Assembly (NCBI GenBank): GCA_040390295.1
Contig: JAZJYR010000024.1
Coordinates: forward strand, 14,195-78,194
DNA from: Pseudomonadota bacterium
Lineage (GTDB): Bacteria > Pseudomonadota > Gammaproteobacteria > Burkholderiales > Burkholderiaceae_C
DNA: 64,000 bases
Direction: 5' to 3'
Positions 9,516 through 26,464 of this stretch are shown one piece after another (the stretch's first letter is position 1; every line of letters begins with the position of its first letter). Below the pieces are notes generated by a model. The model made no database searches. It was not told where the DNA came from and was given only the letters and a program-made list of their open reading frames with translations. Made by a program: the position numbers and the translations under genes.

Positions 9516-10622
9516 GTCTCAAATCTGAAGTGCAACACCTGAAGGCAAAGCCAGTAAGGTCAGCACATGAAGCCAGAGCCAAAGTACCAGCAACTTGGGA
9601 TTGAAGATCGCAGAAGCATCGCCATAGGATGCGAGCAAGGATTAAGTATTCGAGCCATTGCCCGAATACTTAATCGGTCTGCATCCACCATTAGTCGCGA
9701 GATTGCACGCAACGCGCCCTCGGGCTCATACAGTTGCACCTTTGCCCAGCAACGCTTTGTGCGCAGGCGCCGCTTTGCCAGACCCGCGCCAAAGCTGCAG
9801 GCGGGCAACGAGCTGTTTGAGCAGGTCCGCCAGATGTTGCAACTGCACTGAGCAAGTCGCCCATCATCTGGCCTTGCACAACCCGCCTCAGGCACACTGC
9901 CGTGTGTCCCACGAAACCATCTACAACGTCATTTATGCCCAGCCTCGAGGCGAGCTCAAACGCGAACTTGTGGCCTGTCTGCGCATGGCTCGCTCCAAGC
10001 GCTGGCCCCGCTCACGCGGGGTGGACAGGCGCGGCGAGATCGCCGGCCTGTTGAGCATTCACGTACGTCCGCCCGAGGTTCAGGACAGGCAGTTTCCCGG
10101 CCACTGGGAAGGTGACCTGATCAAGGGTCTGGGTAACGCCAGCGCAGTAGGCACGCTGGTCGAGCGCACCACGCGCTTGCTGATGTTGGTCAAGTTGCCC
10201 CATCCGCACCCGGCGACCGCCGCACATGTGTTGCAAGCCTTCACAGACAAACTCAATGGCATCGCCCAACCCATGCGCCAAACCTTGACCTACGACCGGG
10301 GCAAGGAGATGGCATATCACCGACAACTGACGGCCAACACGGGGGTCGCGGTGTACTTCTGTGATCCCCACAGCCCCTGGCAGCGGGGCACCAATGAAAA
10401 CACCAACGGTCTGGTACGCCAGTACTTGCCCAAGGGCACGGACCTGTCGGGCTACCCCCAGGAGCAGCTCGATGCCATTGCCGATCAGATGAATGGCAGG
10501 CCTCGAAAGACGCGGGGCTGGGCTTGGCCCCTTCAGGCATACGGCCAGTGGCTCGCCCGCCTGCAGCTCACTCCAGATACCATCCAATAAACTCAACCTC
10601 GTGTTGCACTTGGACTTGAAAC
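9516..10622 (+). mobile_element. IS30-family insertion sequence
   Basis: Terminal IRs GTCTCAAATCTGAAGTGCAACAC (left) and GTGTTGCACTTGGACTTGAAAC (right) enclose an IS30-type transposase. Confidence 0.75.
9567..10590 (+). pseudogene. IS30-family transposase, frameshifted
   Basis: The N-terminal HTH part (9567-9851, ...LSIRAIARILNRSASTISREIARN...) ends at a stop after QMLQLH. The DDE part continues in another frame (EQVAHHL...HWEGDLI...TYDRGKEM...PWQRGTNENTNG). Confidence 0.8.
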
Positions 10623-11240: not shown

Positions 11241-11590
11241 TTACAGTCGGTATGACAGATTCAGCCAGACCTTTGGCTTGGGGTCATTGACGTCGGCTTG
11301 GGGCACGCCGCCCATGTTGCTGCGCCAGGCCATGACCACATCGGCGCTCCAGGCATTCCTCTGATATCGCAATCCCAGGCCAGCACCACTCAGGCTGCGC
11401 TTGTTATTGGTCGCACCAGCAGCCGGGTTGACATTGGTCTTGATCCTGCCAACATCCCAGAACACAAAGGGCGCAAAAGCTCCTGCGCTGTAGCGAAGTT
11501 CCAGCTGGGCCAGACTGCCTTCATCGCCGCCGCCCTCGCCCGTGTCCAGCGTGACCTGGCTGCCCGCACCGAGCAACACGTCCAGACTCC
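11241..11590 (-). pseudogene. C-terminal fragment of a ShlB/FhaC/HecB-type (TpsB) outer-membrane transporter
   Basis: GDEGSLAQLELRY...FWDVGRI...LSGAGLGLRYQ...VWLNLSYRL matches the last beta-strands of Omp85/TpsB barrels. The N-terminal ~400 aa are missing, and the fragment abuts an IS fragment. Confidence 0.6.
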
Positions 11591-11593
11591 GAC

Positions 11594-11959
11594 TTGGTAA
11601 ACACGATGTTGGATGCTGCCATTGAGACGGTAGCCACCGGTGCAATCAGGCCTGTCATTCACTCTGATCGTGGGGCCCACTATCGCTGGCCAGGCTGGCT
11701 CTCACGGGTGCGCAACGCAAAGCTGATTCGTTCGATGTCGCGCAAAGGGTGTTCACCGGATAACGCAGCTTGTGAGGGCTTCTTCGGGCGATTGAAAACA
11801 GAGCTGTTCTATCCTCGGAACTGGCAGGACATTACGATTGACCAATTCATACAGGCCGTGGACTCTTATATCCGCTGGTATAACGAAAAACGCATCAAGC
11901 TCTCTCTGGGCTCACTCAGTCCCCTGGAATACCGGGCGAGCCTTGGAATCTCGACATAA
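11594..11959 (+). pseudogene. IS3-family transposase OrfB C-terminal fragment
   Basis: HSDRGAHYRW...SRKGCSPDNAACEGFFGRLKTELFY...YNEKRIKLSLGSLSPLEYR is the end of an rve integrase core. No N-terminal part is present. Confidence 0.75.
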
Positions 11960-12247: not shown

Positions 12248-14065
12248 TCATCGCACGGGGGCCTTGTCGCGCATTTCGTAAGCGTTTAATGCGGCCCGGG
12301 CATCGGGCCACTGGGAGGTGCGCGTGGAGGCCCGCCTCACCACCTTTTCCCAGCCGTCACTGAAGGTAACGCCGCCGAGGTACGCGTTCGCGAACTGATC
12401 TGCGGGCAGGCCACTGCGCTCGACTTGCGCCGCCCCGCACACCAATAACGCCCGCTCCAGACTTCGATGGGCCAACAAGGTGCCAACACCAGCCCAGGGA
12501 TGCACCGCGTCAACTTGCAGCGCAACGCCCGCCAGCATCGCTCGCTCGCTTGAGGCCCAGCCCTGTGTGGGCAGCCAGGCCAACCCGGCCATGACGTCCG
12601 CCACGACACGCAACTCATCATCGGGTACCCGCATCAGGTCCAGCGCAATCCGCCCTACCTTCGGTCCCAGTACAAGCCGGCCGACATCCTCCACAGACCA
12701 GCCAGCGACCATCAGGGCAGACAAACCCAGGGTTGTGTTGAATCCAACGAATGCGCCGCCTACCTCACGCGGGGCACGACTCAGGTCGGCGCAGAGATAG
12801 TCGGCCTCCAGCACAGGAAGGTTCAGCGTGCGAGCCAGGCTCTCGGCCATGGTACGCACATGCGGGTGTACCGACGGGGTCACATCAGCGCTTTGGCCAC
12901 CCGTAGAAAAATTTGCGTTGTTTCTGAGTCTCACCTCAAGGCCTGCCGAGACTACAGAGTCCAGTACCAGGCCCTGGGTGACGAGACATTGCCGCGCCTC
13001 GTCATCCAGAGGAATTCGCCGCAAATGGCCCCCACCAAAAAAACGCTGGGTTTCCCGCATGGAATTCTCGATTTCCACCAACTGGCGCACAGTACTGAAC
13101 CCATCGCCCACGACACACGCGACATCGCGCCGTATCGCCGCACGCAACACGCCATCCATGACCATCAGACGGTAATCATTGCCAGGCACAAAAGCTTCCA
13201 CCATCACTGCGTTTCGGCCCTCAGCACGCGCTTCGAGAAAACCAAGCCTGAGCTCCTCAAGCGTCTGGTGCCCAGCGCGAACACCTTTGGCACCACCCTG
13301 TTGAAGCGGCTTGGTTGCACAAGGAAACCCTACCTGCGCTACCGCCGCCGCAAGCTCAGATTCATCGAGAACCAGCGCATGGGCGGGGCTAGGCAGGCCC
13401 AGGGCTGCGAGAGCAGCTTTGCTGACCTCTCTCGACGCATAAATTGGTGCGCCAAACACTTCATTTTCAGCGGAACCTGATAGAAACAGCACCCGGCTGT
13501 TCACACCATGGCCAAAATGCCAGTGGCGGGATTGACCCCAGGCAGGACTATGGGGTACGTGCATGGCGCGCGCCGCTTCGATGAGAATACGTGCAAGAAA
13601 ATCGGGATGAATTTCACGACACGCGCGCCACACTGGCGCCAACTCGGATTCAAATTTTTCAGGCGTTATAGGCCCACGAGACAAGGTTTGCAGCAGACGG
13701 CCGCCAAGCTGCAAGGTCGCCAGACTCAGATCGGGCTCATGAAAACCTAGCCAGAGAGTCTGTCCACCCTGCCCTCCGTCAGTCGCCTGCACCCCTGCGG
13801 TGTGCAAAGAACCACGCATAAAATTCAAGGCTGCCAACGCCCACTGCACCAATGCCCCAGCCAGCTGGTTTGCGCCCAGCAAATCGCTGCCGGTACCGGC
13901 CCACCCGTTAAACCAGGGGGAAGACAACGCTGCAAGATCTGCCACGATACGCGGAGCGTCATCCAACAGCTCCGGGGCCACCGTCATCCCTACAACTATG
14001 ACCGGGTCACGCGAGAACGTGCTGGGCCCGTAGTAGGTGGCCCGGTACTTGAGTTCAATATTCAT
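12248..14065 (-). CDS. cyanophycin-synthetase-like protein: CphA-type N-domain plus ATP-grasp domain plus unknown C-terminal domain, no Mur-ligase module
   Basis: The N-terminus YYGPSTFSRDPVIVVGMTV resembles CphA (RGPNxWS). The ATP-grasp block CATKPLQQGGAKGV...MVEAFVPGNDYRLMVMDG...VVGDGFSTVRQLVEIEN...NNANFSTGGQSADVT...HP aligns with the CphA G-domain. Confidence 0.65.
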   Translation of the reverse strand: MNIELKYRATYYGPSTFSRDPVIVVGMTVAPELLDDAPRIVADLAALSSPWFNGWAGTGSDLLGANQLAGALVQWALAALNFMRGSLHTAGVQATDGGQGGQTLWLGFHEPDLSLATLQLGGRLLQTLSRGPITPEKFESELAPVWRACREIHPDFLARILIEAARAMHVPHSPAWGQSRHWHFGHGVNSRVLFLSGSAENEVFGAPIYASREVSKAALAALGLPSPAHALVLDESELAAAVAQVGFPCATKPLQQGGAKGVRAGHQTLEELRLGFLEARAEGRNAVMVEAFVPGNDYRLMVMDGVLRAAIRRDVACVVGDGFSTVRQLVEIENSMRETQRFFGGGHLRRIPLDDEARQCLVTQGLVLDSVVSAGLEVRLRNNANFSTGGQSADVTPSVHPHVRTMAESLARTLNLPVLEADYLCADLSRAPREVGGAFVGFNTTLGLSALMVAGWSVEDVGRLVLGPKVGRIALDLMRVPDDELRVVADVMAGLAWLPTQGWASSERAMLAGVALQVDAVHPWAGVGTLLAHRSLERALLVCGAAQVERSGLPADQFANAYLGGVTFSDGWEKVVRRASTRTSQWPDARAALNAYEMRDKAPVR

Positions 14066-16058
14066 TGCTTGGCTTGGCCTGGAGTGGTTCAGGAGAATGG
14101 GTAAAACTCTTCATGGCGTGACAGGCTGCGGCCCGGTCCAAACCCTGTGCACCAGCTACCGCCAACGCAATCAGGACATTGGTTTCTTCAAGCCCACGAT
14201 TCGTGGACGACACAGTGGACACCCCCATCAAGGGAGTCAGCACCGAACCCGCCGCATGGATAACACAGGCTCCCGTTGACAGGCGCGCCATAAACAGCGC
14301 TTCTCCGCCCAACTCACGGTGCGTCCGTATCGCCGGGTTCTGATCATCTGACGAGACGAGGATCAGACGGACTCCAGGCGATGCATGGTCTAGCATCTCG
14401 AGGCACCCTGAATCGTCGGCGTTCAGCACAACCACATCCCGCGCGCGCGATAACAACTCCCTCATAAGCGCCGCCCCCTCGCCCGGCACCTGAGTGCCGT
14501 CAATCCCGAGGCCACGCTGGACTCTGGGGATCGCCACCACGTCATATTGGTCACATGGATGGCCAAATTCGAGCGGCCAGTCGCTTGACAGCCCCATGAC
14601 GGCCGCCTCTACCGCCGGGTTTTCAAGCAAAAAGCTGGCGCCCAGAAAGCTGGACGGTTCATTGCCGCCAACAAGTTCTGCACCCACCCAGGTCCCATCG
14701 TCGGTATACAAACCGGCAATCCTCCCGGCCACGCACCAGATGTGATGCAGCATGTACGCAGCCGTCGTATCACCCTGGACACCCGTGATGACTGCATGGG
14801 GAATGCGGGGCGGCTTGTTTTGATACAACCAGTTCACCACTTCACTGCTGATATTGCGCACCGGCGTGGACATCCAGCGTACAGGGGAGCCCGATAGGGC
14901 GGTGATCTCGCAAACGACCCCGCCCACTTCAAGCCAGGGCCGGCTGATGTCAGTGCAGAGAAACTCCACCCCGGCAATACGCAGGCCTGCAGCACGCGCA
15001 GCTGCCTCCGCCAGGGCCCTGTGATCAGGGTGAACGAAAGAAGTCACATCAGCGCCGGTGCTGTCATCGCCCGCCGCCCCACCCACCACGCGCTGCGTGG
15101 CCAGGCGCAACACACCACCCACCACTCGCAACTGGTAGCGCTCGCCAGCAACATACTTCTCCAGAATCACCCGCCCGGGAGTGGACCGGTGGGCGTGGTC
15201 AAAGGCGCTCCGAAGGGCGGTCAGGTCGTAAAGGCCAGGCTCCGAAGCCTGGTCATCGTTACCATGCTTGATGACCACGGGCCAGTTGAGCCGCTGGGCT
15301 GCCTTCTCCGCAGCATCCTGCGTCGCCACAATCCATTGGGAGGGCACGGGAATACCGGCGCGACTCAATACCTGGTTTGTGAGGTGCTTATTTCTGACCA
15401 GTAGCAGTGCCAATCCGCCGGTACTGCCGGTGAAATTGCAGTCAAGATACTCGGCGTATCGCCCCTGACCCAGCTGCAGCATGCCGCGCTGGCAAGTCGT
15501 CGGGATCCCAAGGCGCCGCGCCAATGCAAAAAATCGCAGTGTGGCGGGTGCCCATCCCAACCCCAGGACTGACTTAAGCCACTGGTCCCGGGCTTCACGT
15601 ACCCCTCTCGACTCGACGCCCGGCGCGCCCCCTTGCGACCACAGAATAAGCAGGCGTGCAGCTTGCTCCAGCGCGCCCGGCAACACGTCCTGGCTCGCAT
15701 AAGGAAGGGCAAGCCTGGCAACGTTATCGCCAGACGCGAGCACTGCGCCTTGCCATACCGGCTGGCGCGCCCAGCGCTGCAGGGCAATAGTCAGGGCCAC
15801 CACCCAGAACGGAAACGCATCGAGATTCGCTGAACTGCCTTTCACCACAAAATCTGCCGGAGATCGGGGGGTAGAAAAGCCCCACATGGGGTCGCCAAGT
15901 CGCAACTCGGTCAGGTGCTTGGTGAGGCGCAGGGACCAATCGACGTGGGGTTCCAGCTGTCCGCTCCACTCCATGTCAAGCACTGCAGTTTTTTCATCCA
16001 GCCCTGCGCTGCAGCCGGGTAGAAATTTCAAGCCGGAGAAATCAACAGAGGCAATCAT
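14055..16058 (-). CDS. cyanophycin-synthetase-like protein: N-domain plus shortened ATP-grasp plus Mur-ligase-like middle domain with a degenerate P-loop
   Basis: NKHLTNQVLSRAGIPVP...WPVVIKHGNDD...ILEKYVAGERYQLRVVGG is an ATP-grasp, but the glycine-rich loop and the VGDG...STGG insert are missing. IPHAVITGVQGDTTAAYML sits where Mur ligases and CphA have TGTNGKTT. The gene overlaps the next gene by 11 nt. Confidence 0.6.
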   Translation of the reverse strand: MIASVDFSGLKFLPGCSAGLDEKTAVLDMEWSGQLEPHVDWSLRLTKHLTELRLGDPMWGFSTPRSPADFVVKGSSANLDAFPFWVVALTIALQRWARQPVWQGAVLASGDNVARLALPYASQDVLPGALEQAARLLILWSQGGAPGVESRGVREARDQWLKSVLGLGWAPATLRFFALARRLGIPTTCQRGMLQLGQGRYAEYLDCNFTGSTGGLALLLVRNKHLTNQVLSRAGIPVPSQWIVATQDAAEKAAQRLNWPVVIKHGNDDQASEPGLYDLTALRSAFDHAHRSTPGRVILEKYVAGERYQLRVVGGVLRLATQRVVGGAAGDDSTGADVTSFVHPDHRALAEAAARAAGLRIAGVEFLCTDISRPWLEVGGVVCEITALSGSPVRWMSTPVRNISSEVVNWLYQNKPPRIPHAVITGVQGDTTAAYMLHHIWCVAGRIAGLYTDDGTWVGAELVGGNEPSSFLGASFLLENPAVEAAVMGLSSDWPLEFGHPCDQYDVVAIPRVQRGLGIDGTQVPGEGAALMRELLSRARDVVVLNADDSGCLEMLDHASPGVRLILVSSDDQNPAIRTHRELGGEALFMARLSTGACVIHAAGSVLTPLMGVSTVSSTNRGLEETNVLIALAVAGAQGLDRAAACHAMKSFTHSPEPLQAKPSNEY

Positions 16059-16255
16059 GCCGCAGTGTCTTTGGTCGCAATCGGCGGGATGCCTGGAACC
16101 CTGTGCAGCCGCGACAATCCAGCGGCACTCCGTGCCACGTCAACAGTCCTCGCAGGCCCGCTGCAGCGATGTGGGTCAGGCGCCGGCCGGCGTCGCTGGC
16201 GGCTGCTCGTGTGGCGACGAGAACAACGCAGCCGATTGACCAGTCGGAGGGACAT
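16055..16255 (-). CDS. possible 66-aa Arg-rich ORF exactly filling the gap between the exported protein and the first cphA-like gene
   Basis: Its ATG overlaps the upstream stop (TGATG) and its TGA overlaps the downstream ATG (ATGA). The composition (14 Arg) is also what a spurious ORF in GC-rich DNA would look like. Confidence 0.25.
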   Translation of the reverse strand: MSLRLVNRLRCSRRHTSSRQRRRPAPDPHRCSGPARTVDVARSAAGLSRLHRVPGIPPIATKDTAA

Positions 16256-16863
16256 CAGCGGTTAAGGCGGGCCAGTTCCCGGCGCAAGGCGGCCTCGTCA
16301 TCTCGCAGTCGAAGCAGAGAAGCGCTCTGGGCTGCTCCGCCGCTGCGCTGGGCAGCCTCAAGAGCTGCCTGCGTGCTGGCCAGCTCGGACCGCAGGATGG
16401 TTTGCGCGTCCTGGTCGCGCGCGCTCTGCTCACTCGTCGGTACCCGCATGCCTGTGGCGTCGGGCGAGCGGGCAGGGGCCGCAATAGCCGGGGCAATCCG
16501 GGCTTGGACGACGGGGGCGACTTTTTGGGCGGTGGGCGTTGCAACAGATCCGGCCAGTGGCCGGTCCCCCGCAGCCATGGTCGCAGAAACAGCGGCAGGC
16601 ACGGCAGCCGCTGGCACCGGATCGGCGGACTCCAGCTCCGGCCCACCTGCCGCCTGGGTGATACGCCCGGGCATCGCGCGCGAACACCCTTTAAGAAGTG
16701 CCTGAGCCTTATCCATCTGGTTGGTGAACAAATTGCGGGGGCACTGGTAGAGCTCACCGTCCGGCGCGGCATCAGCCAGCCCTGCAGTCGAGAGCACCCA
16801 GATACACATTGCAAGGCCCACAAACCCACATCGGGCAAATCTTAGGGGTTGTTTTTGCTCCAT
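16255..16863 (-). CDS. exported protein, DUF4124-like N-terminus and Ala/Pro-rich linker with C-terminal coiled coil
   Basis: Signal peptide MEQKQPLRFARCGFVGLAMCIWVLSTAGLADA, then ELYQCPRNLFTN...GC, then a helical ARDQDAQTILRSELASTQAALEAAQ tail. The ORF is open up to 16893, and the MEQKQ start is preferred. Confidence 0.5.
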   Translation of the reverse strand: MEQKQPLRFARCGFVGLAMCIWVLSTAGLADAAPDGELYQCPRNLFTNQMDKAQALLKGCSRAMPGRITQAAGGPELESADPVPAAAVPAAVSATMAAGDRPLAGSVATPTAQKVAPVVQARIAPAIAAPARSPDATGMRVPTSEQSARDQDAQTILRSELASTQAALEAAQRSGGAAQSASLLRLRDDEAALRRELARLNR

Positions 16864-17001
16864 AATGCATTGTATTCTTTTTACCGATTTCAATGTTTTT
16901 GTGGTGTTTGTATCGATTTTTGAACCGAACTCAAGCTTGATCGGGCAGTCCAGTTTGCAGGCTTACCGCCTGAGCCGCCCCCATTTCTCCACGACCACCT
17001 C

Positions 17002-18618
17002 ATGCCCAAAACCAGCCCACTGACTTGGACATGGACGCTGCCGATGATGCTGGTGTTTTGCTGGCCCTGGACGGGCGGCCCCTCCGTGACGGTGGTGCCT
17101 TTCGCTGCGGGTTTGCTGGCGGTGGCCATTGCGGGCATGGCGCTCAAGCCCACCATTCCGCTGCGGTCCCTGGCCTGGCTATTCGCCGTGGTCGGGGCAG
17201 CCTGGCTAAGCGGCATGGGTTACCGCGAGACAGGTGCCGGCCTTGTCGCGACAGCAGTAGCCTGTGGCGTGTTGATGGCGATCGGGCGTATGGCACGAAG
17301 CCAGCGCAGCATTCCGCAGGCCCTGATGGTTGCGCTGGTGCTGGCCATGTTTTGGCACGTGCTGGTTGCCTGGATGCAGTTTTTTCACGTCGAGGGCGCA
17401 TTCCACCCACTCGCCAACCTGAATTTCACGCCGCGCCCTTACGGTAACCTGCGTCAACCCAACCACCTGGCCAGCTTTGCGCTGATCGGCCTGCTGGCGG
17501 TGTGGTGGCGCCACCAGCGCGGGCTTGATGCACGAAGCGTCACGGCCATTCTGGCCGCGCTGGCTTATTCCGGTGTGGCCCTTTCGGGTTCGCGCACAGG
17601 CCTGCTGTCCTCAACGGTCGTGGCGTTGTGTCTTTGGTTTTTGCTGAAGCGTGCGAGCCGTTTTGAACGGTGCGTCTTTCTGGCCGGCCCGCTTTGGGTG
17701 ATATTGATCGCTTTCGCCCTGCCATTCGTCGGCATGACCCCGAACCCGGAAATAACCCGTGACAATGCATCCTGGTCAGTTCGGCTAATTTACTGGCGCG
17801 AGGCTTGGAACCTCGCGTTGAGTCACCCTTTGCTGGGTGTGGGCTGGGGCGAACTGGCCCGCGCACGGTTTGAGCAGTTACCGCTGCAACCCGGGGTGCA
17901 CAACACATTCCATGCCCACAACCTGGTGCTCCACCTGCTCGCCGAAGTGGGTTTTATAGGTGCCACAGCGATCCTGGCGCCTGTGGCCTGGCTGCTCTGG
18001 CGCCAACGCCCCTGGCGTGTGATGCATGCAAGCACATGCGACAATTCTGACCTTGTATGGGCCTGGCTGGTGCTGTCGGTGGTGGGCCTGCACAGCATGG
18101 TCGAATACCCGCTGTGGTACATGCCTTTTCTGATCCCCACCGCGTTCGCCTTCGGGCTGATCATGACGGGCGGGCTTGGCGCATCAGGGCTCCGTCAGTC
18201 GGGACCGGGGTTAGCCGCTGGGGCGGGAGCGTTGCTGCTTTGCACTGTGCTGGCACTGGTGGACTATGCCGGGGTCAGCGCAGCTTATGGCGCAAAAGGG
18301 CGTTCGGTGGCCGCCCTCACCCCTTCACCGCCGACCCAAGCCACCGTGTTGTTTCAGCGCTACGCCGATCGCGACCTGCTGATGCGTACGTCGCTGACAC
18401 CGGAGAACGCGCCACAAGTACTGGCGGCCACCGAGCGCCTTTTGAGTGACGGGCCCAACCCGTTTCTGCTGTCGAGACGGCTGGCGGCCTTGTGTGAGTT
18501 GGTGCGCGAGTCCAAAGCCCGGCGGCTGGCTGCAAGATTCAAAGTGCTGTTTCAGGAGGACTACGCCAGGTTCCTCCTGACCCAAAACCCTGCTGCGCTC
18601 AAGCGCTGTGGCTTGTGA
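17002..18618 (+). CDS. O-antigen ligase / PglL-type O-oligosaccharyltransferase family membrane protein (Wzy_C plus C-terminal polymerase-associated domain)
   Basis: About 10 or more TM segments. SGSRTGLLS and HAHNLVLHLLAEVGFIGA are typical of the Wzy_C/PglL/PilO family. The soluble C-terminal tail resembles that of pilin-glycosylation ligases. Confidence 0.7.
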   Translation: MPKTSPLTWTWTLPMMLVFCWPWTGGPSVTVVPFAAGLLAVAIAGMALKPTIPLRSLAWLFAVVGAAWLSGMGYRETGAGLVATAVACGVLMAIGRMARSQRSIPQALMVALVLAMFWHVLVAWMQFFHVEGAFHPLANLNFTPRPYGNLRQPNHLASFALIGLLAVWWRHQRGLDARSVTAILAALAYSGVALSGSRTGLLSSTVVALCLWFLLKRASRFERCVFLAGPLWVILIAFALPFVGMTPNPEITRDNASWSVRLIYWREAWNLALSHPLLGVGWGELARARFEQLPLQPGVHNTFHAHNLVLHLLAEVGFIGATAILAPVAWLLWRQRPWRVMHASTCDNSDLVWAWLVLSVVGLHSMVEYPLWYMPFLIPTAFAFGLIMTGGLGASGLRQSGPGLAAGAGALLLCTVLALVDYAGVSAAYGAKGRSVAALTPSPPTQATVLFQRYADRDLLMRTSLTPENAPQVLAATERLLSDGPNPFLLSRRLAALCELVRESKARRLAARFKVLFQEDYARFLLTQNPAALKRCGL

Positions 18619-18796: not shown

Positions 18797-19546
18797 ATGA
18801 TCAACGTTTCGGAAGCCCCGGGCCTGGAAAGTCCGACAAGGGTTCTGCTGGTTGAGGACGACGGGGAAATTCGCCACCTGCTTTGGCGCTATCTTGAGAC
18901 GAATGGCATCAAGATGTCGGTTGCAGCCGATGCCGGGGCGGCCCGCCGTTTGATGACACGCCAGTTCTTCGACCTCGTCATCCTCGACTTGTCACTTCCC
19001 GACGAGGATGGCCTCGGCATTTGCAAGAGCATGCGCGATGCTGGCGATAGCACCCCGCTCGTGATGCTCACAGCGCGCAGCGACCTTGCGGCCCGCGTCA
19101 CAGGCCTGGAAATGGGCGCGGACGATTACGTCACCAAGCCCTTTGAGCCAAGCGAACTCCTGGCGCGCATTCATGCCCAGGTGAGGGGACGACTTTATAA
19201 GAACATGATTCGGGGCGATGCGCATGACCCTCTTACGGTCACGTTCGGTATCTGGAGGCTGAGCCTCGACAGGCCCATGCTTTGCCGCGAAGGCCATCCT
19301 GTCGATATCACGCCAACCGAATACGCCCTGCTCAAAGCACTGGCGACACACTGCAATACACCTCTTGGGCGCGACAAATTGATCAGACTTACGCACAGTT
19401 TTGGGGCCACGCTCAATTGGCGCAGCGTTGACGTTCAGATCATGCGCCTGCGCAGGCTAATTGAAAGCGATCCGGCGTGTCCGCAGCTGATTCAGACGGT
19501 CTGGGGTGTGGGCTATGTCTTTGCGCCTGGGGAGTCCGGTGCCTGA
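18797..19546 (+). CDS. OmpR-family response regulator (receiver plus winged-helix)
   Basis: VLLVEDD...ILDLSLPDEDG...YVTKPF, and the C-terminal LTPTEYALLKAL...IQTVWGVGYVF. Confidence 0.9.
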   Translation: MINVSEAPGLESPTRVLLVEDDGEIRHLLWRYLETNGIKMSVAADAGAARRLMTRQFFDLVILDLSLPDEDGLGICKSMRDAGDSTPLVMLTARSDLAARVTGLEMGADDYVTKPFEPSELLARIHAQVRGRLYKNMIRGDAHDPLTVTFGIWRLSLDRPMLCREGHPVDITPTEYALLKALATHCNTPLGRDKLIRLTHSFGATLNWRSVDVQIMRLRRLIESDPACPQLIQTVWGVGYVFAPGESGA

Positions 19547-20918
19547 ACAAAAAAATTCTTTGGGTTCTTTTCTGACGTTCCAGTCACTGCAGCGTCTGCG
19601 ATCGCTTGCGGTTTTTAACACCATGCTGATCGTGTGTCTGGTGATCTCAATGTCAATGGGCATCGTCCTCACAGGGTTTTACCATTTCGTCCAGAAACCC
19701 CGGACTGAAGTATTGACAGACTTCTTTTCGGTGCAGATCTCTACTATTGAGCTGGCTATCTCCATATTGCCGCCAGCAGAGCGCAGCGGCTACCTGCAGC
19801 GACTTGAGACGCTCAGTGACGGAAAAATCAGGCTGTTTGAGCAGGGACACCAGGAAACGGCATCAACAGAACCGTACCTGGTACAGGAGTTTCTGAAAAA
19901 TTTGCGCCAAAAGTCGCCCCGACAAAAGATTAAGTTTATGACCAATCCCCACCCTCAATTGTGGGTGGAAATCAAGTCCCCAGGAGAAGCGCCCACCGTG
20001 TTAACCATGTTTCTGGCGGACGATCTTCGGGTTCCCGCAGGCCTGATCATCGCCAACGTTCTAGTCGCTCTGGCACTGGCTTTTGCAGGCAGCTTATTAC
20101 TGCTCAGGCACACCCGCAAAGAGTTGGGTCCGCTCGCGAAAGCGATTGACAGCTTTGGCGATGGAGCCCCATTTTCGACAGGCTTGCTCGCGGAAAGTAC
20201 CGGAGCTCACGGCATAAGTGAGGAGTTCCTCACAAAATTCAGCGACATGTCGAAACGCCTGGCGCAGGCAAACGTGGAGCGCCAGTTGCTGCTGGCCCAT
20301 CTGTCGCACGACCTGCGCTCCATACTGACGCGTCTGCGGCTAGCCATGGTGATGCTGGTCAACAATCCGAAGGCCATGCAGAAGCTGACGGCACACATCC
20401 ACGAGATGAATCGGCTCATTGGGCAGATACTGGATTTTGGACAGCCCGAAGAGCCTAAAGACGGGATGGAAATACACCTGAGTGAAGTGGTGAACACAGT
20501 TATCGCTGACTTCGAACTGCAAGGCGCGACGATTCATTACCTGGCGGCCCCAACGCCAGCGAGCGTGCTGCGACCACTGGCGGTGCGCCGGCTGCTAGGC
20601 AACCTTATCGACAACGCCTTGCGGCATGCTGGACCCACAGTGGAGTTACGCACATACTTTACAGACGGGTTCGTTCGCGTGCAGGTTCTGGACCGCGGCC
20701 CCGGGGTGAGGCCAGAAGAGCTGGTTCAGTTGACGCAACCCTACTTTCGCACCCCGGATGCACGGACACGTTGCCGAGGCAGCGGCCTTGGCCTGGCCAT
20801 CGCCGAGCGGATTGCGATCTCCCACGGCGGCTTTTTGCGGGTAGGACTGAGGAAAGGCGGCGGAATGTGCATAGAAGCCGGATTTCCCGCAAACGATGAC
20901 GCAAGCGCGGGCGCCTAG
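19506..20918 (+). CDS. EnvZ-like sensor histidine kinase
   Basis: Two TM segments, H-box LAHLSHDLRSILTRL, N-box LIDNALRHA, and G-boxes DRGPGV and GSGLGLAIAERI. It overlaps the regulator gene. Confidence 0.85.
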   Translation: MWAMSLRLGSPVPEQKNSLGSFLTFQSLQRLRSLAVFNTMLIVCLVISMSMGIVLTGFYHFVQKPRTEVLTDFFSVQISTIELAISILPPAERSGYLQRLETLSDGKIRLFEQGHQETASTEPYLVQEFLKNLRQKSPRQKIKFMTNPHPQLWVEIKSPGEAPTVLTMFLADDLRVPAGLIIANVLVALALAFAGSLLLLRHTRKELGPLAKAIDSFGDGAPFSTGLLAESTGAHGISEEFLTKFSDMSKRLAQANVERQLLLAHLSHDLRSILTRLRLAMVMLVNNPKAMQKLTAHIHEMNRLIGQILDFGQPEEPKDGMEIHLSEVVNTVIADFELQGATIHYLAAPTPASVLRPLAVRRLLGNLIDNALRHAGPTVELRTYFTDGFVRVQVLDRGPGVRPEELVQLTQPYFRTPDARTRCRGSGLGLAIAERIAISHGGFLRVGLRKGGGMCIEAGFPANDDASAGA

Positions 20919-20986
20919 AGACGCGGCCCTTTGCACCCCAGTGTCATTTTTGAAATATCTTTCCATTGCAAAAAAACCACAAAAAT

Positions 20987-21006
20987 TTTGCAAATAATCT
21001 TTGCAA
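20987..21006 (+). promoter_or_regulatory. direct repeat TTTGCAA-N6-TTTGCAA in the AT-rich region upstream of the first pilin gene
   Basis: TTTGCAAATAATCTTTGCAA. Further TTGCAA/TGCAA copies lie at 20966-20971 and ~21043. Confidence 0.35.
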
Positions 21007-21089
21007 TCAATACACTAGAAGCGTATTCAATACTTTACATGAATGCAATGTTTATATCGATTAAACTATTTTACGAACGGAGAAGTTAA

Positions 21090-21920
21090 ATGTTTCAAAG
21101 AATGAAAGCTGGAACCATGGGTCGAGGTAGAAGTCGGCAGGGCGGTTTCACCCTGGTCGAAATGTCCGTAGCGCTGGCGGCGGCAGGCTTGCTGTTCGCG
21201 GCCGTAATGACCGGTCAGGAGCTTATCGACCAGACAAAAGCCACCAAGCTGCTGAACGACGTCAAGTCGGTCGAAATGCAGATCCAGCAGTACGCGCAGC
21301 TCAAGGGTCGCATGCCCGGTGACTGCAACGCCGACGGCATCATTGACTTTGCGGCTGACGCCACCAGTCGTTTGGACACTGACAACACTACTCGTGCGCT
21401 GAAGTACGGATACGCCACCACAGTTCCAACTCCGGCGGGAACTGCGGCTACGGCAGCGACATTCGATGAGGGTTGTGTCCTCCAGGATTCCACTAACAAT
21501 ACCACCTCCACCACGCTCGCGGTGTCCACCACCGAAGCCAATACAGTGATCAATGACCTGAAGTTGGCGGGGGTGATCAGCGACAGCGTGCCCAACCGCA
21601 AGTTTGCCAAGCTGGTTCATGAAGACTTCATGTTTGTCGGCAAAATCACCGACAAGGGTGGTTCGTCAGCGGCAGATGCAAACTACAACGCCATCGTGAT
21701 CCACAACGTCCCGCAGTGGATGGCACGCCGCATGGCCACCGCCATCAATGGGCAGGACGCCGTTGCCAACCGCTCGCGCGTGCGCCTGTTAGAGCGTTCC
21801 GGTAGTGACGGAACCTATAACGGCCTTTGGAATACGACCGCTTCCGGTACCACTGGCAACAGCCGCGATGCCATGGTGACGGTGGTGTATTTCTTTGACC
21901 GCATTCCTGCAACCTCTTAA
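21090..21920 (+). CDS. type IV pilin-like protein (276 aa) with a 19-aa leader
   Basis: The prepilin motif is ...SRQGG/FTLVEMSVALAAAGLLFAA (Gly-1, Phe+1, Glu+5). The centre is Thr/Ser/Ala-rich and there are two Cys. A GGAG RBS lies 8 nt upstream. Confidence 0.8.
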   Translation: MFQRMKAGTMGRGRSRQGGFTLVEMSVALAAAGLLFAAVMTGQELIDQTKATKLLNDVKSVEMQIQQYAQLKGRMPGDCNADGIIDFAADATSRLDTDNTTRALKYGYATTVPTPAGTAATAATFDEGCVLQDSTNNTTSTTLAVSTTEANTVINDLKLAGVISDSVPNRKFAKLVHEDFMFVGKITDKGGSSAADANYNAIVIHNVPQWMARRMATAINGQDAVANRSRVRLLERSGSDGTYNGLWNTTASGTTGNSRDAMVTVVYFFDRIPATS

Positions 21921-21947
21921 CACTTAGCATTTGGCGAAAGCCAAAGT

Positions 21948-22018
21948 GAAGGTGGGCTCAGACCCACCTTCAACAAGTCAGCCCTGGCACACCTGTCACA
22001 GGCAGGGCTGACTTGTTG
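21948..22018 (+). terminator. two consecutive hairpins after the pilin gene
   Basis: GAAGGTGGG/CCCACCTTC (21948-21971), then a 16-bp stem CAACAAGTCAGCCCTG/CAGGGCTGACTTGTTG (21971-22018). Confidence 0.55.
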
Positions 22019-22059
22019 AACGGGACGCAAGCCCCTGAATACCTTGTCAGTCAAGTTTT

Positions 22060-23625
22060 TTGAAAAATCCGCCAATGAAAAAGCTGTTGGTCACCATGTC
22101 TCGCGCCGACACGCTATATGGCACCCACCCGGTGCGCTACGCAGTTGTGCGCGGCCGCGAGGTGTTGCAGATCGGCAGCGGCGCGGCGGACGAACTCGCC
22201 AACAAGGCGGGCGGCTCGATGCGCGTCAGCCTGGACTCACCTGAAAATCTGAGCGAGCGCTTGCGGGTGAGGGCCTTGGGGCGCCGGTTTGTGCCGGTGC
22301 TGGTGCAGCGCCACCTGACAGATAACGGAACCTTCACAGAACGTTTTCGCTCGCGCAGCCGCGTGGCCTGGCTGCGGCAAGGTGAGGCCGAGGTGGATGT
22401 GCATGCCATGCTGGAGGACGATGCCGAACTGGCCCAAAGCCTGATGCCGGGCTCCGCACGGCCGCTGACACATCTGATCACCGCAGACGCAGCGGTGGCC
22501 GACCTGATCCGTGCAGCCAGCACAGAGCCGGTACTGGTGCACTGGTGGCACATGGGCATGTTGCGCACCTTGGGCGTGCGCAATGGCAGCGTGGCCTGGC
22601 AGCGGGTACAACCGCTTGGGGACATGTCAGGGCATGCTGATGCAGACCTGTGGAAGACGCTGCTTGAAAGTGCGGCGGCGAATGCGCCAGCAGAATTCAC
22701 AGGTCCCAATTGCTCCGTTGTTCGCTTGGGTAACGGCCCTTGGGCCGCGTCGGGGGACTGGGCCAACAACGGGTCGCGCGAGCTGGTGCAGCGCATCTGC
22801 GACGTGTTCAAGGCCACAGACCCGACACAGGTGCTGCTGCAGCCAGACCTGTTTGGCTTGGCATTCGCAGACCGTCACCAAAACCTCATTACCAATGGCT
22901 ACCGCCAGCGCGTCGCGGCCTGGTACGCAGCGCCTGTGGCCGCGACCCTCGCCAGTCTTGCCGGCGCGGTGCTGCTAGGTCTGGGTATCTGGTGGCAGGC
23001 CCAGGCTGACCATCGCAGCGCGGCACTCGAGCTCAACCTGCAAACTCTGGCCACGCAAAGCAAGGCACTTGAGAACCAGCGCCCCCCCACAGGCGCGGTG
23101 GCTGCACTGCGCTCGGCAGCATGGCGCGAAACCGCGTTGGGCGCCAACCTTCGGGCGGACCACTTCCTCACCGAGCTGCTGGCCCAGGTGCCGGCAGATG
23201 CGCAAGTCACGCAGATCGCCATCCGCCGGGACGACCTTGGCAATGAGCGCCTGCGCCTGACTGACGGACGGCCCGCTCCCGGCACCCAATCTGCAAACGT
23301 GAAGGCGGCCCGCCAGCCCGTGACCCAGCAGGCGAAAGCCCCTTCCACTGATGGGTTGCGACCGGTGTCGGAGCCCGTGACGTTCAAACCAGGGGTGCCG
23401 GTAAGGCGCATGCCCCAGGCGGGTGAACCCACATTCACCGTGGACCTGAAGATCTATCTGGGAGGGGGTTACGCGGGTGGCAAGCTCAAGGCAGAGAAGA
23501 TGGCTGAGCAATTTTCGACGCTGGGGCGACTCTCGGACACCCGGCTGGTGTTCGAGGACCAGGGGCCGCTGGCTCCGGGCGCACTGATGCAAACGCGGCT
23601 GACCATCGCAGCCGGAGCCTTCTGA
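22060..23625 (+). CDS. bitopic pilus assembly protein, MshI-like (PilM/PilN-fusion-like) by position and topology
   Basis: About 300-aa cytoplasmic part, one TM (AAPVAATLASLAGAVLLGLGIWW), and a ~200-aa periplasmic part with a coiled coil. First gene of the assembly operon. No motif was confirmed by eye. Confidence 0.4.
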   Translation: MKNPPMKKLLVTMSRADTLYGTHPVRYAVVRGREVLQIGSGAADELANKAGGSMRVSLDSPENLSERLRVRALGRRFVPVLVQRHLTDNGTFTERFRSRSRVAWLRQGEAEVDVHAMLEDDAELAQSLMPGSARPLTHLITADAAVADLIRAASTEPVLVHWWHMGMLRTLGVRNGSVAWQRVQPLGDMSGHADADLWKTLLESAAANAPAEFTGPNCSVVRLGNGPWAASGDWANNGSRELVQRICDVFKATDPTQVLLQPDLFGLAFADRHQNLITNGYRQRVAAWYAAPVAATLASLAGAVLLGLGIWWQAQADHRSAALELNLQTLATQSKALENQRPPTGAVAALRSAAWRETALGANLRADHFLTELLAQVPADAQVTQIAIRRDDLGNERLRLTDGRPAPGTQSANVKAARQPVTQQAKAPSTDGLRPVSEPVTFKPGVPVRRMPQAGEPTFTVDLKIYLGGGYAGGKLKAEKMAEQFSTLGRLSDTRLVFEDQGPLAPGALMQTRLTIAAGAF

Positions 23626-23627
23626 TC

Positions 23628-25256
23628 ATGACCCGCGATGCCCAAACGGTGCAAGTTCGTCCGAACGGAAACGCTTTGCTCGCCCAACTGGAAAAAGCGG
23701 GCGTGCTCACGCCGCAACAGGTCAGCTACACGCAGCGAATCACTCGCTCTCTGGGCCAGCAGACGACCCAGATACTGCGACTGCTGCGCATGGTGTCGGA
23801 CACGGACATTGCCAAAGCGCTGGCTGTTGTGAACGGGCTGTCCAGCTGGCGACCCGATGCCACGAAAGTGGACTCGCAGGCGCTGGCACAGTTACCTTTC
23901 AGTTTTGCGCGGCAGCACAATATGCTGCCCGTGTGCAACATAAATGGCGTGCTTTACATCGCCACAGACGAGCCGGGTGACCTTGAGGCTCAACAACGCC
24001 TGCGCCGCCATGTCCCGGGCGAAGTGCGCTGGCTTGTTGCACCTCGCGCCGCACTGGCTTCGACCATAGAGATGGTCTACAGGGCCGCCAGCCACCCAAG
24101 CGCAGACGAACTGGAGCGCGAACTGGAACGGGTGGGCGGCGATCTGGATGGCGGCCGCCTGGTAAGGCTTGCACTTGCCGATGCGGTCGAGCGCGGTGCC
24201 AGCGACGTGCACTTCACGCCTTCAGGCTTCGCGTTGCTGGTTTCATTTCGCATCGACGGCGTGCTGCAGTTGCACCATGTGCTCCCCTCGGACCTGCATA
24301 TGCGCGTGGCGTCTGCCATCAAGGTGGAGGCTGGCATGGACATAGGTGAGTCAAGGCGCCCACAGGACGGGAGCTACACGCTTGCGGTGGCTGGCCAGCC
24401 ATTTGACCTGCGGGTCTCGACGATGCCAACCACCCATGGTGAGAATCTGGTGGTTCGGATTTTATCCATGCGGGGTGATGTGCTGCCGCTGGACCAATGT
24501 GGATTTTGGCCCGAGCAGGTGACGCAGATAGAACAACTGATGCGCGCGCCGGATGGCCTGGTGCTGGTCACCGGCCCCACCGGATGCGGCAAGACCACCA
24601 CCCTTTACGCTGGCCTGCGCATGATCAATGCGTTGGAACGCAACATCATGACGGTGGAAGACCCGGTTGAATACCACGTGCCGCTCGTCCGCCAAGTGCG
24701 CCTGAACGACCGTGCAGGCATGAACTTTTCCACTGCCGTCAAGGGCTTTCTGCGGCAAGACCCTGACGTGATCCTGGTGGGTGAAGTGCGCGACGCGGAA
24801 ACCGCATCGATGGCGATTCGTGCCGCTCAAACCGGCCATCTGGTACCTGCGAGCCTGCATACCAACGACGCTGTGGGCGCCATCAGCAGGCTGCGCGATC
24901 TGGAGGTGCCGGACTACCTGCTGTCGGCCAGTTTACGAGGGGTAGTTGCGCAACGCTTGCTGCGCAAACTGTGCGCGGTATGCCGCCAGCCGACGGAGGG
25001 ATCGCACTTTAAAGCAGTTGGCTGCGGGAGTTGTAACCAAACGGGCTACCGCATGCGACTGGCCGTGGGCGAGGTGTTGCTGATTGACGACGAAGTTCGG
25101 TCCCTGATTGATCAAAAGGCGGGGGAGTCAGCCATCCGGCGCAATGTGGTGGGACGCGGATTCAAGCCCATGCGCGTCTGGGCGCAGCAACTCGTGGACC
25201 TAGGCGTAACCACCAGCGCCGAGCTGGACCGGGTATTTGGCGGGGTTCCGGCATGA
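23628..25256 (+). CDS. GspE/PilB/MshE-family type IV filament assembly ATPase
   Basis: Walker A GPTGCGKTT, Walker B DPDVILVGEVRD, His box GHLVPASLHTND, and a tetracysteine CAVC...CGSC. Confidence 0.9.
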   Translation: MTRDAQTVQVRPNGNALLAQLEKAGVLTPQQVSYTQRITRSLGQQTTQILRLLRMVSDTDIAKALAVVNGLSSWRPDATKVDSQALAQLPFSFARQHNMLPVCNINGVLYIATDEPGDLEAQQRLRRHVPGEVRWLVAPRAALASTIEMVYRAASHPSADELERELERVGGDLDGGRLVRLALADAVERGASDVHFTPSGFALLVSFRIDGVLQLHHVLPSDLHMRVASAIKVEAGMDIGESRRPQDGSYTLAVAGQPFDLRVSTMPTTHGENLVVRILSMRGDVLPLDQCGFWPEQVTQIEQLMRAPDGLVLVTGPTGCGKTTTLYAGLRMINALERNIMTVEDPVEYHVPLVRQVRLNDRAGMNFSTAVKGFLRQDPDVILVGEVRDAETASMAIRAAQTGHLVPASLHTNDAVGAISRLRDLEVPDYLLSASLRGVVAQRLLRKLCAVCRQPTEGSHFKAVGCGSCNQTGYRMRLAVGEVLLIDDEVRSLIDQKAGESAIRRNVVGRGFKPMRVWAQQLVDLGVTTSAELDRVFGGVPA

Positions 25257-26464
25257 AGCTGTTCTGGTACCGGGCCATGACGTCAGAAGGCACTTTGGTG
25301 CGTGGCTCAGGCGAGCACGCCAGCGAGATGGATCTAATAGATTCGCTGGTCGCAGAGGGACTACAGCCGTACAGCGTCTGGTCGCTCCCGAGCTGGCTGA
25401 CGGTGCTGTGGTCGCGCCCCTTGAACATGGGGGCCGTAGCGGAGTTCTGCCAGCTGATCGGCCAGCATGTGCGCGCCGGTGCTGACCTTCGCCTAGCGCT
25501 GACCGAGGCAGTCAAGGGTGCCTCGACCACCCGGCTACGAATGCTCTGCGCGCGCCTGAAACGCTCGCTGGAGCGCGGTGACACGCTGGCTCAAGCCATG
25601 GAGGCGACCCGCGCGTTTCCGATGATGCTGCGCCACCTGTTAACTGTGGGCGAAGAGACAGGTCAACTCGAAAACATCCTGGGGAACGCAGCATCGCAGT
25701 ACGAGCAGGCGAGGGTACTGCGTGCGGCTATTCTTCGCGCAACTATTTACCCGGCCATTGTGCTGGTTGTGCTGCTTCTGAGCTGCGCATTCTGGATGTT
25801 GTTCGTCATTCCAAAAATGACGGCAATGTTCGACTCCTTACGCGTGACGCTGCCCCCGGCCACGCTGAAGGTGATTGCGGCAACCGAATGGCTGAGGGCG
25901 TACGGCGCATGGTTGCCTTTGGTACTGTTACCTCTCGCACTTGCCGTGCCGCTACTATGGCGTCATCCGTTTTTTGCCCCTGCGATCCATGCGGTGGTGT
26001 GGTGGATGCCCGGCGTCAAGGGTCTGGAACGCTCACGGGTTTATTACGCTTTTTTCAGCAATCTGGGAACCATGCAGTCGGCCGGCATGACCCTCACACG
26101 CAGTCTGGCAGTGCTGCTGCAGCAGCCTGTGAACCAGCACTTCGGCAGCCGCCTCACGCGCATGAGTGCCAGTACCCGCCGCGGGCTGGCACTATCCGAC
26201 GGTCTGGCACAAAGTGGGGTATTTGAGAGATTTGCCTTGAGCATGATCCGCCTTGGCGAGACCACGGGCACGCTTGACAAGCAAAGTCTGCTCTTGAGTG
26301 AGCACTATTCAGTGCGCCTCAAACAACAAATCGAAACCGGCTCGCGGCTGTTCGAACCCCTGGTGTTGCTTGTACTGGGTGTCTTCCTGCTGCTCATAGG
26401 CGCGACCATGCTGGGCCCGGTTTACGAACTGGCGTCGCGGGCAGCCACGGGGCTCAAGCCATGA
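25253..26464 (+). CDS. GspF/PilC/MshG-family inner-membrane platform protein
   Basis: Two repeated T2SSF-type halves (LIGQHVRAGADLRLAL... and FFSNLGTMQSAGMTLTRSL...), three TM segments, and an ATGA overlap with the ATPase gene. Confidence 0.85.
   Translation: MKLFWYRAMTSEGTLVRGSGEHASEMDLIDSLVAEGLQPYSVWSLPSWLTVLWSRPLNMGAVAEFCQLIGQHVRAGADLRLALTEAVKGASTTRLRMLCARLKRSLERGDTLAQAMEATRAFPMMLRHLLTVGEETGQLENILGNAASQYEQARVLRAAILRATIYPAIVLVVLLLSCAFWMLFVIPKMTAMFDSLRVTLPPATLKVIAATEWLRAYGAWLPLVLLPLALAVPLLWRHPFFAPAIHAVVWWMPGVKGLERSRVYYAFFSNLGTMQSAGMTLTRSLAVLLQQPVNQHFGSRLTRMSASTRRGLALSDGLAQSGVFERFALSMIRLGETTGTLDKQSLLLSEHYSVRLKQQIETGSRLFEPLVLLVLGVFLLLIGATMLGPVYELASRAATGLKP

Follow-up and report, generated by a model that had tools for sequence, protein, structure and literature searches.

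A degenerate pair of cyanophycin synthetase-like genes in a Burkholderiales genome assembly and its intact relatives

Introduction

In the cyanophycin synthetase CphA1, the ATP-grasp (G) domain extends the peptide backbone via an acyl-phosphate and the M domain, which resembles Mur ligases, attaches the side-chain residue. CphA2 (PDB 7TA5, 8FXH), which polymerises β-Asp-Arg, combines an N domain and an active G domain with an M domain that is truncated and inactive (PMC10273328). Neighbouring cphA copies are known in non-cyanobacteria (Füser and Steinbüchel 2007, via PMC10687191), and published descriptions include such copies in Accumulibacter, a "longer and shorter copy" in Tetrasphaera, and a "Group 1" cluster of two cphA genes with an ATP-binding cassette (ABC) transporter and insertion sequence (IS) elements. 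Here we analyse a 64,000-nt stretch of a Pseudomonadota bacterium of the Burkholderiales (GenBank assembly GCA_040390295.1, contig JAZJYR010000024.1, positions 14,195 to 78,194), hereafter the window, that carries two overlapping genes for CphA-like proteins, which we call A' (upstream) and B (downstream).

The pair is a degenerate copy that is unlikely to make a polymer. With moderate confidence, we favour the reading that the locus is a catalytically inactive remnant of a system of two or three CphA-like paralogues, in which A' would be a long-standing pseudoenzyme and B would have been inactivated more recently, with decay now starting.

Results

Two divergent homologues of cyanophycin synthetase

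The open reading frame (ORF) list places A' (667 aa) at 14055..16058 and B (605 aa) at 12248..14065, both on the minus strand; the end of the A' gene and the beginning of the B gene share 11 nt (14055..14065, minus strand). Both reading frames are open in the window over their 667 and 605 codons, and no clear Shine-Dalgarno sequence was seen by eye at the overlap. The same DNA is found in the metagenome-assembled genome (MAG) GCA_040384345.1 of NCBI and in two independent single-run assemblies. The two ORFs, their overlap and the motifs that a first-pass annotation of the letters had quoted are all present at their places.

That annotation had described the pair as divergent, partly pseudo-enzymatic relatives of cyanophycin synthetase, and profile, PDB and Foldseek matches agree. 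The profile search that it had proposed as a check matches the NCBIfam model PRK14016 with E = 6e-74 for A' and E = 3e-57 for B. The scores against TIGR02068 and PRK14016 are 223.6 and 249.6 bits for A' and 174.7 and 194.6 bits for B, all below the curated CphA1 cutoffs of 850 and 877 bits, respectively. The best CphA1 chains in the PDB match A' with E = 7e-58 and B with E = 3e-40. Furthermore, AlphaFold models of A' and B reach predicted local distance difference test (pLDDT) scores of 86.7 and 87.5 and match CphA1 structures in Foldseek with a query TM-score (TMq) of 0.70-0.78. A' and B are true but divergent CphA homologues, with a resemblance far beyond chance.

The ATP-grasp fold is seen in weak Pfam ATP-grasp matches and in Foldseek matches to Ddl, RimK, LysX and GshF. 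A' does not have the GKT P-loop and C-terminal domain of a Mur ligase, but the fold remains recognisable through MurE matches in Foldseek and NCBIfam. The full CphA1 order of N, G and M with a C-terminal Mur-ligase domain is found in neither protein. Neither of them matches PF18921, which is also recorded for no member of the families to which they belong (see below).

Neighbouring genes that overlap on one strand could be taken for one canonical cphA that a frameshift or assembly error has cut in two. We reject this candidate because A' and B each have their own N and G domains, which align to the same CphA1 N- and G-domain residues. The proteins also belong to different families whose full-length orthologues are encoded separately, and the same sequence stands in three assemblies. 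A split cphA is therefore vanishingly improbable, and the first-pass description of two separate genes holds.

The upstream protein has no complete catalytic site

From searches of public proteins we defined three families, A, B and C. Family A proteins are about 870-906 aa long and follow the CphA1 order N-G-M, and the full-length members keep all motifs: VVKPSNQDQGLGV, DDHRLLV, RRTANISTGG, GxDFL, CEVNAQPGFR, TGTNGK[TS]T, ExPRKGL, DDHIG, NADD, PGRYN and HNPDG. A' scores 735 bits against the family A profile versus 201 bits against that of CphA1. BLAST aligns it, with 11% gaps, to P0002, a full-length member of 891 aa, at 48% identity and to P0004 at 46%. A neighbour-joining tree nests A' among full-length proteobacterial A proteins, beside P0005 and P0002-P0004, with a branch roughly double the length of theirs. 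What is left of the architecture is an N domain, a G core without the Gω module, and an M core; the C-terminal Mur domain is gone.

The G site is damaged at several positions. VVIKHGNDDQASEPG stands in place of the Gly-rich loop, and an in-frame deletion of ~70 aa, seen in the alignments to P0002 and P0004, runs from just after GDG to STGG and removes Gω, the module that recognises the substrate aspartate in CphA1 (PMC9427784). Its junction, where VVGGAAGDD meets STGADVT (15042..15089, minus strand; aa 324-339), includes the residues 327-333 for which the model has pLDDT below 50. In GERYQLRVVGG (15114..15146, minus strand), Gln replaces the catalytic Arg that corresponds to R309 of TeCphA1; the R309A change abolishes CphA1 activity (PMC9427784). 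Furthermore, Glu occupies the position of the Mg-ligand Asp, and in CEITALSG (14889..14912, minus strand) ExN has become ExT; the equivalent of R458 is lost, with Pro in its place.

The M site is no better preserved. The Mur-ligase P-loop, TGTNGK[TS]T in relatives, reads TGVQGDTT (14763..14786, minus strand), with Asp for Lys; Gly replaces the Glu of ExxRGG; and the DH motif is lost in PRVQRGLG (14505..14528, minus strand). In SuCphA1, the D585A/H586A change inactivates the M domain (PMC9262961). The last ~10 codons (PLQAKPSNEY) are not homologous to family A and mark the point where the C-terminal ~230 aa were lost. The first-pass reading of this protein, with the Gly-rich loop and the segment from GDG to STGG missing, CEIT and TGVQGDTT in place of the canonical motifs and no C-terminal Mur domain, is thus accurate in each point.

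The damage is not spread evenly. The N domain (aa 1-190; 15489..16058, minus strand) is the best-conserved part in the alignment to P0002, to which it is 60.5% identical, within the range of intact sisters (53-62%). The G domain is 55.7% identical to that of P0002 (74-76% in sisters) and the M domain 50.6% (60-82% in sisters). Likewise, A' keeps all 11 family-A invariant columns of the N domain, 45 of 92 in G and 50 of 82 in M. Because the N domain was kept while G and M diverged, this pattern argues that A' was long under selection for a non-catalytic role, and spent much of its history as such a protein rather than as a uniformly drifting pseudogene.

The downstream protein has a CphA2-like architecture and an altered Mg site

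B belongs to a family of ~570-640 aa proteins for which an exhaustive profile search gave full-length matches in at least 150 representative clusters (50% identity); B itself scores 839 bits over profile positions 1-599. Its domains are an N domain, an ATP-grasp G domain with TKP, GGAKGV, DYRLMV, NFSTGG and GFN all present, and a tail.

The tail had been read at first as an unrelated domain of ~180 aa, with no M domain in the protein. We reject this, since Foldseek aligns the protein over its full length with both CphA1 and CphA2 and relics of the M core can be recognised; what follows the G domain is an M core cut down to ~150 aa and lacking a P-loop. Against CphA2 (7ta5) the model aligns over its full length, in 628 columns with TMq 0.66 and a target TM-score of 0.68. 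Alignment, hhalign and Foldseek place the relics at 12395..12658 (minus strand), with VGRIALDLMRVP where CphA1 has RIPxxAxTGTNGKTT, and TLLAHRSLERALLVCG leading to SGLPADQ. Across 36 CphA-type sequences, CphA1 included, R472 and G552 of the tail are invariant and I473 is nearly so; they sit in GRI and GLP of B, and GRI stands where CphA1 has RIP before the P-loop. When the tail alone was compared by hhalign, TLLAHRSLERALLVCG up to ERSGLPADQ fell on the CphA1 M-core segment RxVLxHPxVEAAVLETARGGiLReGLxFDR, a weak match (E = 0.29, 30 columns) in the correct place. B thus has the CphA2 layout of N, G and a truncated, inactive M of ~150 aa. CphA2 has a competent G domain as its sole active site; B of the window carries E441G in that domain.

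To weigh single residues, we used a census of 160 other family B sequences, in which positions were counted where the residue is present, and a per-domain comparison of relative rates; these replaced a leave-one-out count of invariant columns (16 substitutions in B), which is confounded by phylogeny. Gly441 (codon GGA, 12743..12745, minus strand) replaces the Glu of ExN, which is found in 156 of 156 other members and which we take to be a Mg ligand, as in ATP-grasp enzymes. The codon has the same base in the independent assembly L084. Glu420 (12806..12808, minus strand) replaces a Gly that is invariant in 156 of 156 other members, two residues before the conserved Asp422, presumably the ATP-grasp Mg-ligand position from what is known of the superfamily. 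Furthermore, Arg212 (13430..13432, minus strand) replaces the Lys of 158 of 158 other members; the corresponding K220 of TeCphA1 contacts the ATP β-phosphate (PMC9427784). B also has G259A and P446L.

The changes G420E and E441G, each unique to the window protein among about 156 members, lie on neighbouring strands at the Mg site.

Leaving contig-end copies aside, a scored G-site residue is missing from B in only two of ~55 loci, namely in the window (Glu to Gly) and in L123, where the Asn of ExN is Asp. In its G domain, B lies ~7.5 percentage points further from outgroups than the sister cluster does; this is not so for its N domain. The set of CphA1 G-site residues (K220, K261, the G-domain P-loop, R309, N394 and S396 of Gω, the Mg ligands Asp and ExN, and R458) is incomplete in both A' and B, and the M-site set (GK[TS], the Glu of ExxRGG, DH) is incomplete in A', with no P-loop of any kind in B. 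E215 of TeCphA1, whose placement on families A, B and C is ambiguous, is left out of the G-site set.

A sibling strain carries a frameshift in B

A sibling strain (L084) is 99.87% identical to the window over 5.2 kb. Within the pair, the two differ by 2 non-synonymous and 0 synonymous single-nucleotide polymorphisms, one giving His to Arg in A' and one at a Leu/Arg position of B, at which the window carries the derived allele. Furthermore, at an AGCG repeat (12547..12555, minus strand) L084 has a 4-bp AGCG insertion that shifts the frame of B, leaving a protein of 519 aa (P0026). Between the window genes and their nearest relatives, at 55-60% amino acid identity, synonymous sites would be saturated for the ratio of non-synonymous to synonymous rates (dN/dS).

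These data bear on the idea that both proteins are kept for a purely non-catalytic function, such as the binding or control of a polymer whose synthesis depends on enzymes from other parts of the genome. Intact frames in the window would fit it, as would N domains that in both proteins are no more diverged than those of relatives, next to relaxed catalytic domains. However, B is frameshifted in the sibling strain, no partner enzyme was found in the window, and we know of no polymer-binding or regulatory, non-catalytic function of CphA paralogues. We consider this explanation improbable, with a slim chance of being right.

Intact relatives form systems of two or three paralogues

In the nearest relatives of both A' and B all motifs are intact; the degeneracy is therefore specific to this lineage, and not a design of the family. 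Family C proteins (~620-650 aa) consist of N and G domains and a degenerate tail, and accompany A and B in many loci. An intact system would comprise A (~890 aa, N-G-M with all motifs), B (~600 aa) and often C (~630 aa), a second CphA2-like paralogue. The gene order varies: L003 has C, A, a 131-aa ORF and B, L004 has C and A pointing away from B, and L005 has A, B and C. Many metagenome contigs have B with a C-like paralogue. A, B and C paralogues thus occur together in varying combinations, and some B genes stand alone within ±10 kb (L008, L009, L011). Every clear relative is from a MAG or a metagenome, notably of Comamonadaceae and Burkholderiales. The 131-aa gene, which has no Pfam or NCBIfam match in L003, is missing at the window locus, and no other CphA-like ORF, family C included, lies within the 64-kb window.

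In CphA1, Arg458 holds the Asp α-carboxylate. B and C have no equivalent of Arg458, and B has none of His267 or Gln. The importance of these residues in CphA1 is shown for R458 (PMC9427784) and, by the H267A change, for H267 (PMC9262961). In the loci with Pfam listings, the annotated genes include no cyanophycinase. Because of these three features, the product of the A/B/C system may differ from cyanophycin, which is a lead and not a finding. Some A/B/C loci adjoin genes for 3'-phosphoadenosine-5'-phosphosulfate (PAPS) synthesis and sulfotransferase or for ABC exporters.

One could go further and suppose that A, B and C form a heteromeric, CphA-derived synthetase of a polymer other than cyanophycin, in which a dead A' would be structural or tethering and the A'-B pair of the window a minimal working version, its Mg carboxylate moved from position 441 to 420. 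We regard this as quite unlikely. How the intact system would work is judged only by analogy with CphA1.

Several loci in this set are worth recording. In L003 (1-6766; ENA ZHAN22-5 scaffold_67), the C, A, 131-aa and B genes directly follow genes for a sulfotransferase, CysD and CysN/C (PAPS synthesis); these neighbours may hint at a sulfated product, or be a coincidence. In L091 (1-12313), three CphA-like genes stand beside two ABC exporter genes: a B-like gene called at 927 aa (1113 aa from stop to stop), an A whose M domain is dead, and a C-like gene. All scored residues are present in the three G sites, and no M site among them is active. The family B representatives P0116, P0175 and P0187 (1472-1965 aa) are much longer fusions that contain the B module.

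Catalytic sites have been lost repeatedly in family A

Other family A members show domain loss in every combination. G is intact, M dead and the C-terminus truncated in P0005, P0020 and the 717-aa protein of L085, and G is dead and M intact in P0022 and P0023 (the 800-aa protein of L088). In L006 and L110, the A-like proteins have a dead G site and keep the P-loop, with altered DH and HNP motifs. Finally, all sites are dead in P0024 (581 aa) and in the L088 protein of 599 aa; Gω is deleted in them between almost the same boundaries as in A', and their genes lie directly 3' of another CphA-like gene, with overlaps of 4 and 14 nt. These all-dead forms belong to a separate clade of the tree, in loci with actinobacteria-type neighbour genes, and A' of the window thus arose independently of them.

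Between two members of that clade, dN/dS of the all-dead gene is 0.26 over 219 codons. The M-intact partner in the same clade has 0.22, and 0.20 over its dead G remnant. The value for the all-dead gene indicates that non-catalytic CphA paralogues can be maintained by selection.

An A-like subfamily of 900-970 aa stands beside B in L006, L099, L107, L110 and L124; its M domain has DNH for GDH, its members have no C-terminal HNP motif, and in those of L006 and L110 the G site is also degenerate, with ExN reading SxD. In a Sulfuritalea MAG, another betaproteobacterium, a family B gene (L022, 1902-3736) lies in at least 4 reading-frame pieces and is a clear pseudogene.

The first-pass annotation had seen complementary degenerate sites in the window pair, which would make it a split enzyme, with the downstream protein catalysing the G (backbone) reaction and the upstream protein the M (side-chain) reaction. 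At first sight the domain content is indeed complementary, and such an arrangement seems present in L006 and L110, where B has all scored G residues and the A-like protein a damaged G site and an intact P-loop. In the window, however, the M domain of A' is without the P-loop Lys, the Glu of ExxRGG, DH and the entire C-terminal domain, the D585A/H586A change being enough by itself to inactivate M in CphA1 (PMC9262961), and B is without the Glu of ExN. With none of the three catalytic sites intact in this genome, the residue states contradict a split enzyme, which is very improbable.

A different account would make the pair a working heteromer, with B an active ATP-grasp ligase or polymerase in which Glu420 replaces Glu441, and A' a selected, non-catalytic N-domain subunit for tethering or assembly. 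The apparent constraint on the A' N domain is consistent with this, as are the two intact ORFs with their 11-nt overlap, the paired unique changes G420E and E441G beside the Mg site, and the A' types of the other clade, which recur next to another CphA-like gene with overlaps of 4 and 14 nt and are under purifying selection. Set against it are the position of Glu441, conserved in 156 of 156 members and taken here as the Mg ligand of ATP-grasp enzymes, and the change K212R, which also strikes the β-phosphate Lys. Furthermore, the G domain of B evolves faster, the sibling strain has a frameshifted B, and the partners in the other two A' loci each keep one site with all scored residues, G in the 717-aa protein of L085 and M in the 800-aa protein of L088. 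We retain the working heteromer as the main, tentative alternative, with a minor but appreciable chance.

Surroundings of the locus

Just downstream of the pair, in a patch of gene remnants, lie an IS30-type transposase, frameshifted and split into a helix-turn-helix ORF and an rve ORF (9567..10590, plus strand; ORF list and family matches), and the last 121 aa of an IS3-type OrfB (11594..11959, plus strand; family matches), a C-terminal fragment. With only these two degraded IS copies downstream, and a base composition that is not distinct, the mobile island proposed in the first-pass annotation is not supported. A scan for promoters and terminators returned 0 promoter-like sites, and terminator-like sites at chance level.

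A 134-aa ORF in the same patch (11241-11645, minus strand) looks by eye like the C-terminal end of an outer-membrane beta-barrel protein and has no Pfam match. Directly upstream of A', on the same strand, a 212-aa ORF (16255-16893, minus strand) that is kept in sibling contigs has a signal-peptide-like N-terminus and an Ala/Pro-rich middle, and matches nothing in Pfam or NCBIfam. Beyond it, a PglL/Wzy_C-type protein O-glycosylation ligase (17002-18618, plus strand) adjoins a two-component pair of the OmpR type together with a cluster of the type IV pilus/MSHA-like kind (prepilin N_methyl, T2SSE, T2SSF) at about 18797-28014.

Discussion

The reading that we favour is that of an inactive remnant. 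Starting from an intact system, A would have become the pseudoenzyme A' by losing Gω, the catalytic Arg, the Asn of ExN, the Lys of the P-loop, DH and the whole Mur domain at its C-terminus. Its N domain and fold would have been kept, possibly because the protein binds polymer, helps oligomers to form or has some other non-catalytic role. B would have kept its fold and uniquely lost the Mg-binding Glu of ExN, with changes at two more invariant sites, and the pair would most likely be unable to polymerise amino acids. The inactivation of B is probably the more recent event, and the locus may now be eroding, as the degraded IS copies next to it and the frameshift in B of the sibling strain suggest.

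Four points weigh against this reading. Both ORFs are open over 667 and 605 codons and both models fold confidently, and therefore any neutral phase must have been short. The all-dead forms of the other clade are under purifying selection, so that a dead A' alone is no evidence of decay. Taken together at the Mg site, G420E and E441G could reflect relocation of a carboxylate rather than its loss. Finally, the comparison with the sibling strain comes down to 3 differences in all, too few for a statistical test, and the frameshift comes from a single-run assembly.

Beyond the window, family B is a sizeable, unnamed CphA2-like family outside cyanobacteria, usually found beside one or two more CphA paralogues. 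Catalytic domains in these systems have been switched off repeatedly and independently, and fully dead copies are under purifying selection. Intact operons such as that of L003 (C-A-B) let one ask what the product is and whether CphA-type enzymes act as heteromers with pseudoenzyme subunits. In the literature we found general notes on neighbouring cphA copies and no account of the A, B and C families, a "CphA3", CphA-like pseudoenzymes, the size of family B or recurrent, selected all-dead paralogues.

Among known systems, the ATP-grasp module of GshF/GshAB (PDB 3LN6, 3LN7) is the next-best homologue of the G domain, but it comes without a CphA N or M domain and makes a tripeptide, not a polymer. 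The tandem cphA copies described in the literature resemble the loci studied here in being tandem paralogues, sometimes with an ABC transporter (compare L091) and flanking IS elements; the published descriptions give no catalytic-site states and define no A, B or C families.

CphA1 (TIGR02068/PRK14016; PDB 7LG5, 7LGM, 7LGN, 7WAC) provides the best sequence and fold matches of both A' and B, and full-length members of family A share its N-G-M order, fold and motifs. Even the intact P0002, however, stays below the CphA1 cutoffs (617 bits against TIGR02068, 627 against PRK14016), its first ~90 residues unaligned, and A' is further removed by the absence of Gω, R309, the Asn of ExN, the P-loop Lys, DH and the C-terminal domain. 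CphA2 (N 1-158, G 159-486, M 487-636) shares architecture and size with B and C. In phmmer searches B is nevertheless no closer to CphA2 (8fxh, E = 2e-29; 7ta5, 7e-28) than to CphA1 (7lgn, 3e-40). Unlike CphA2, family B occurs in MAGs of Burkholderiales and other non-cyanobacteria and is without the equivalents of H267 and R458, and the window copy has in addition lost the Glu of ExN. Judged from these sequences, B is probably a truncation that arose independently of CphA2.

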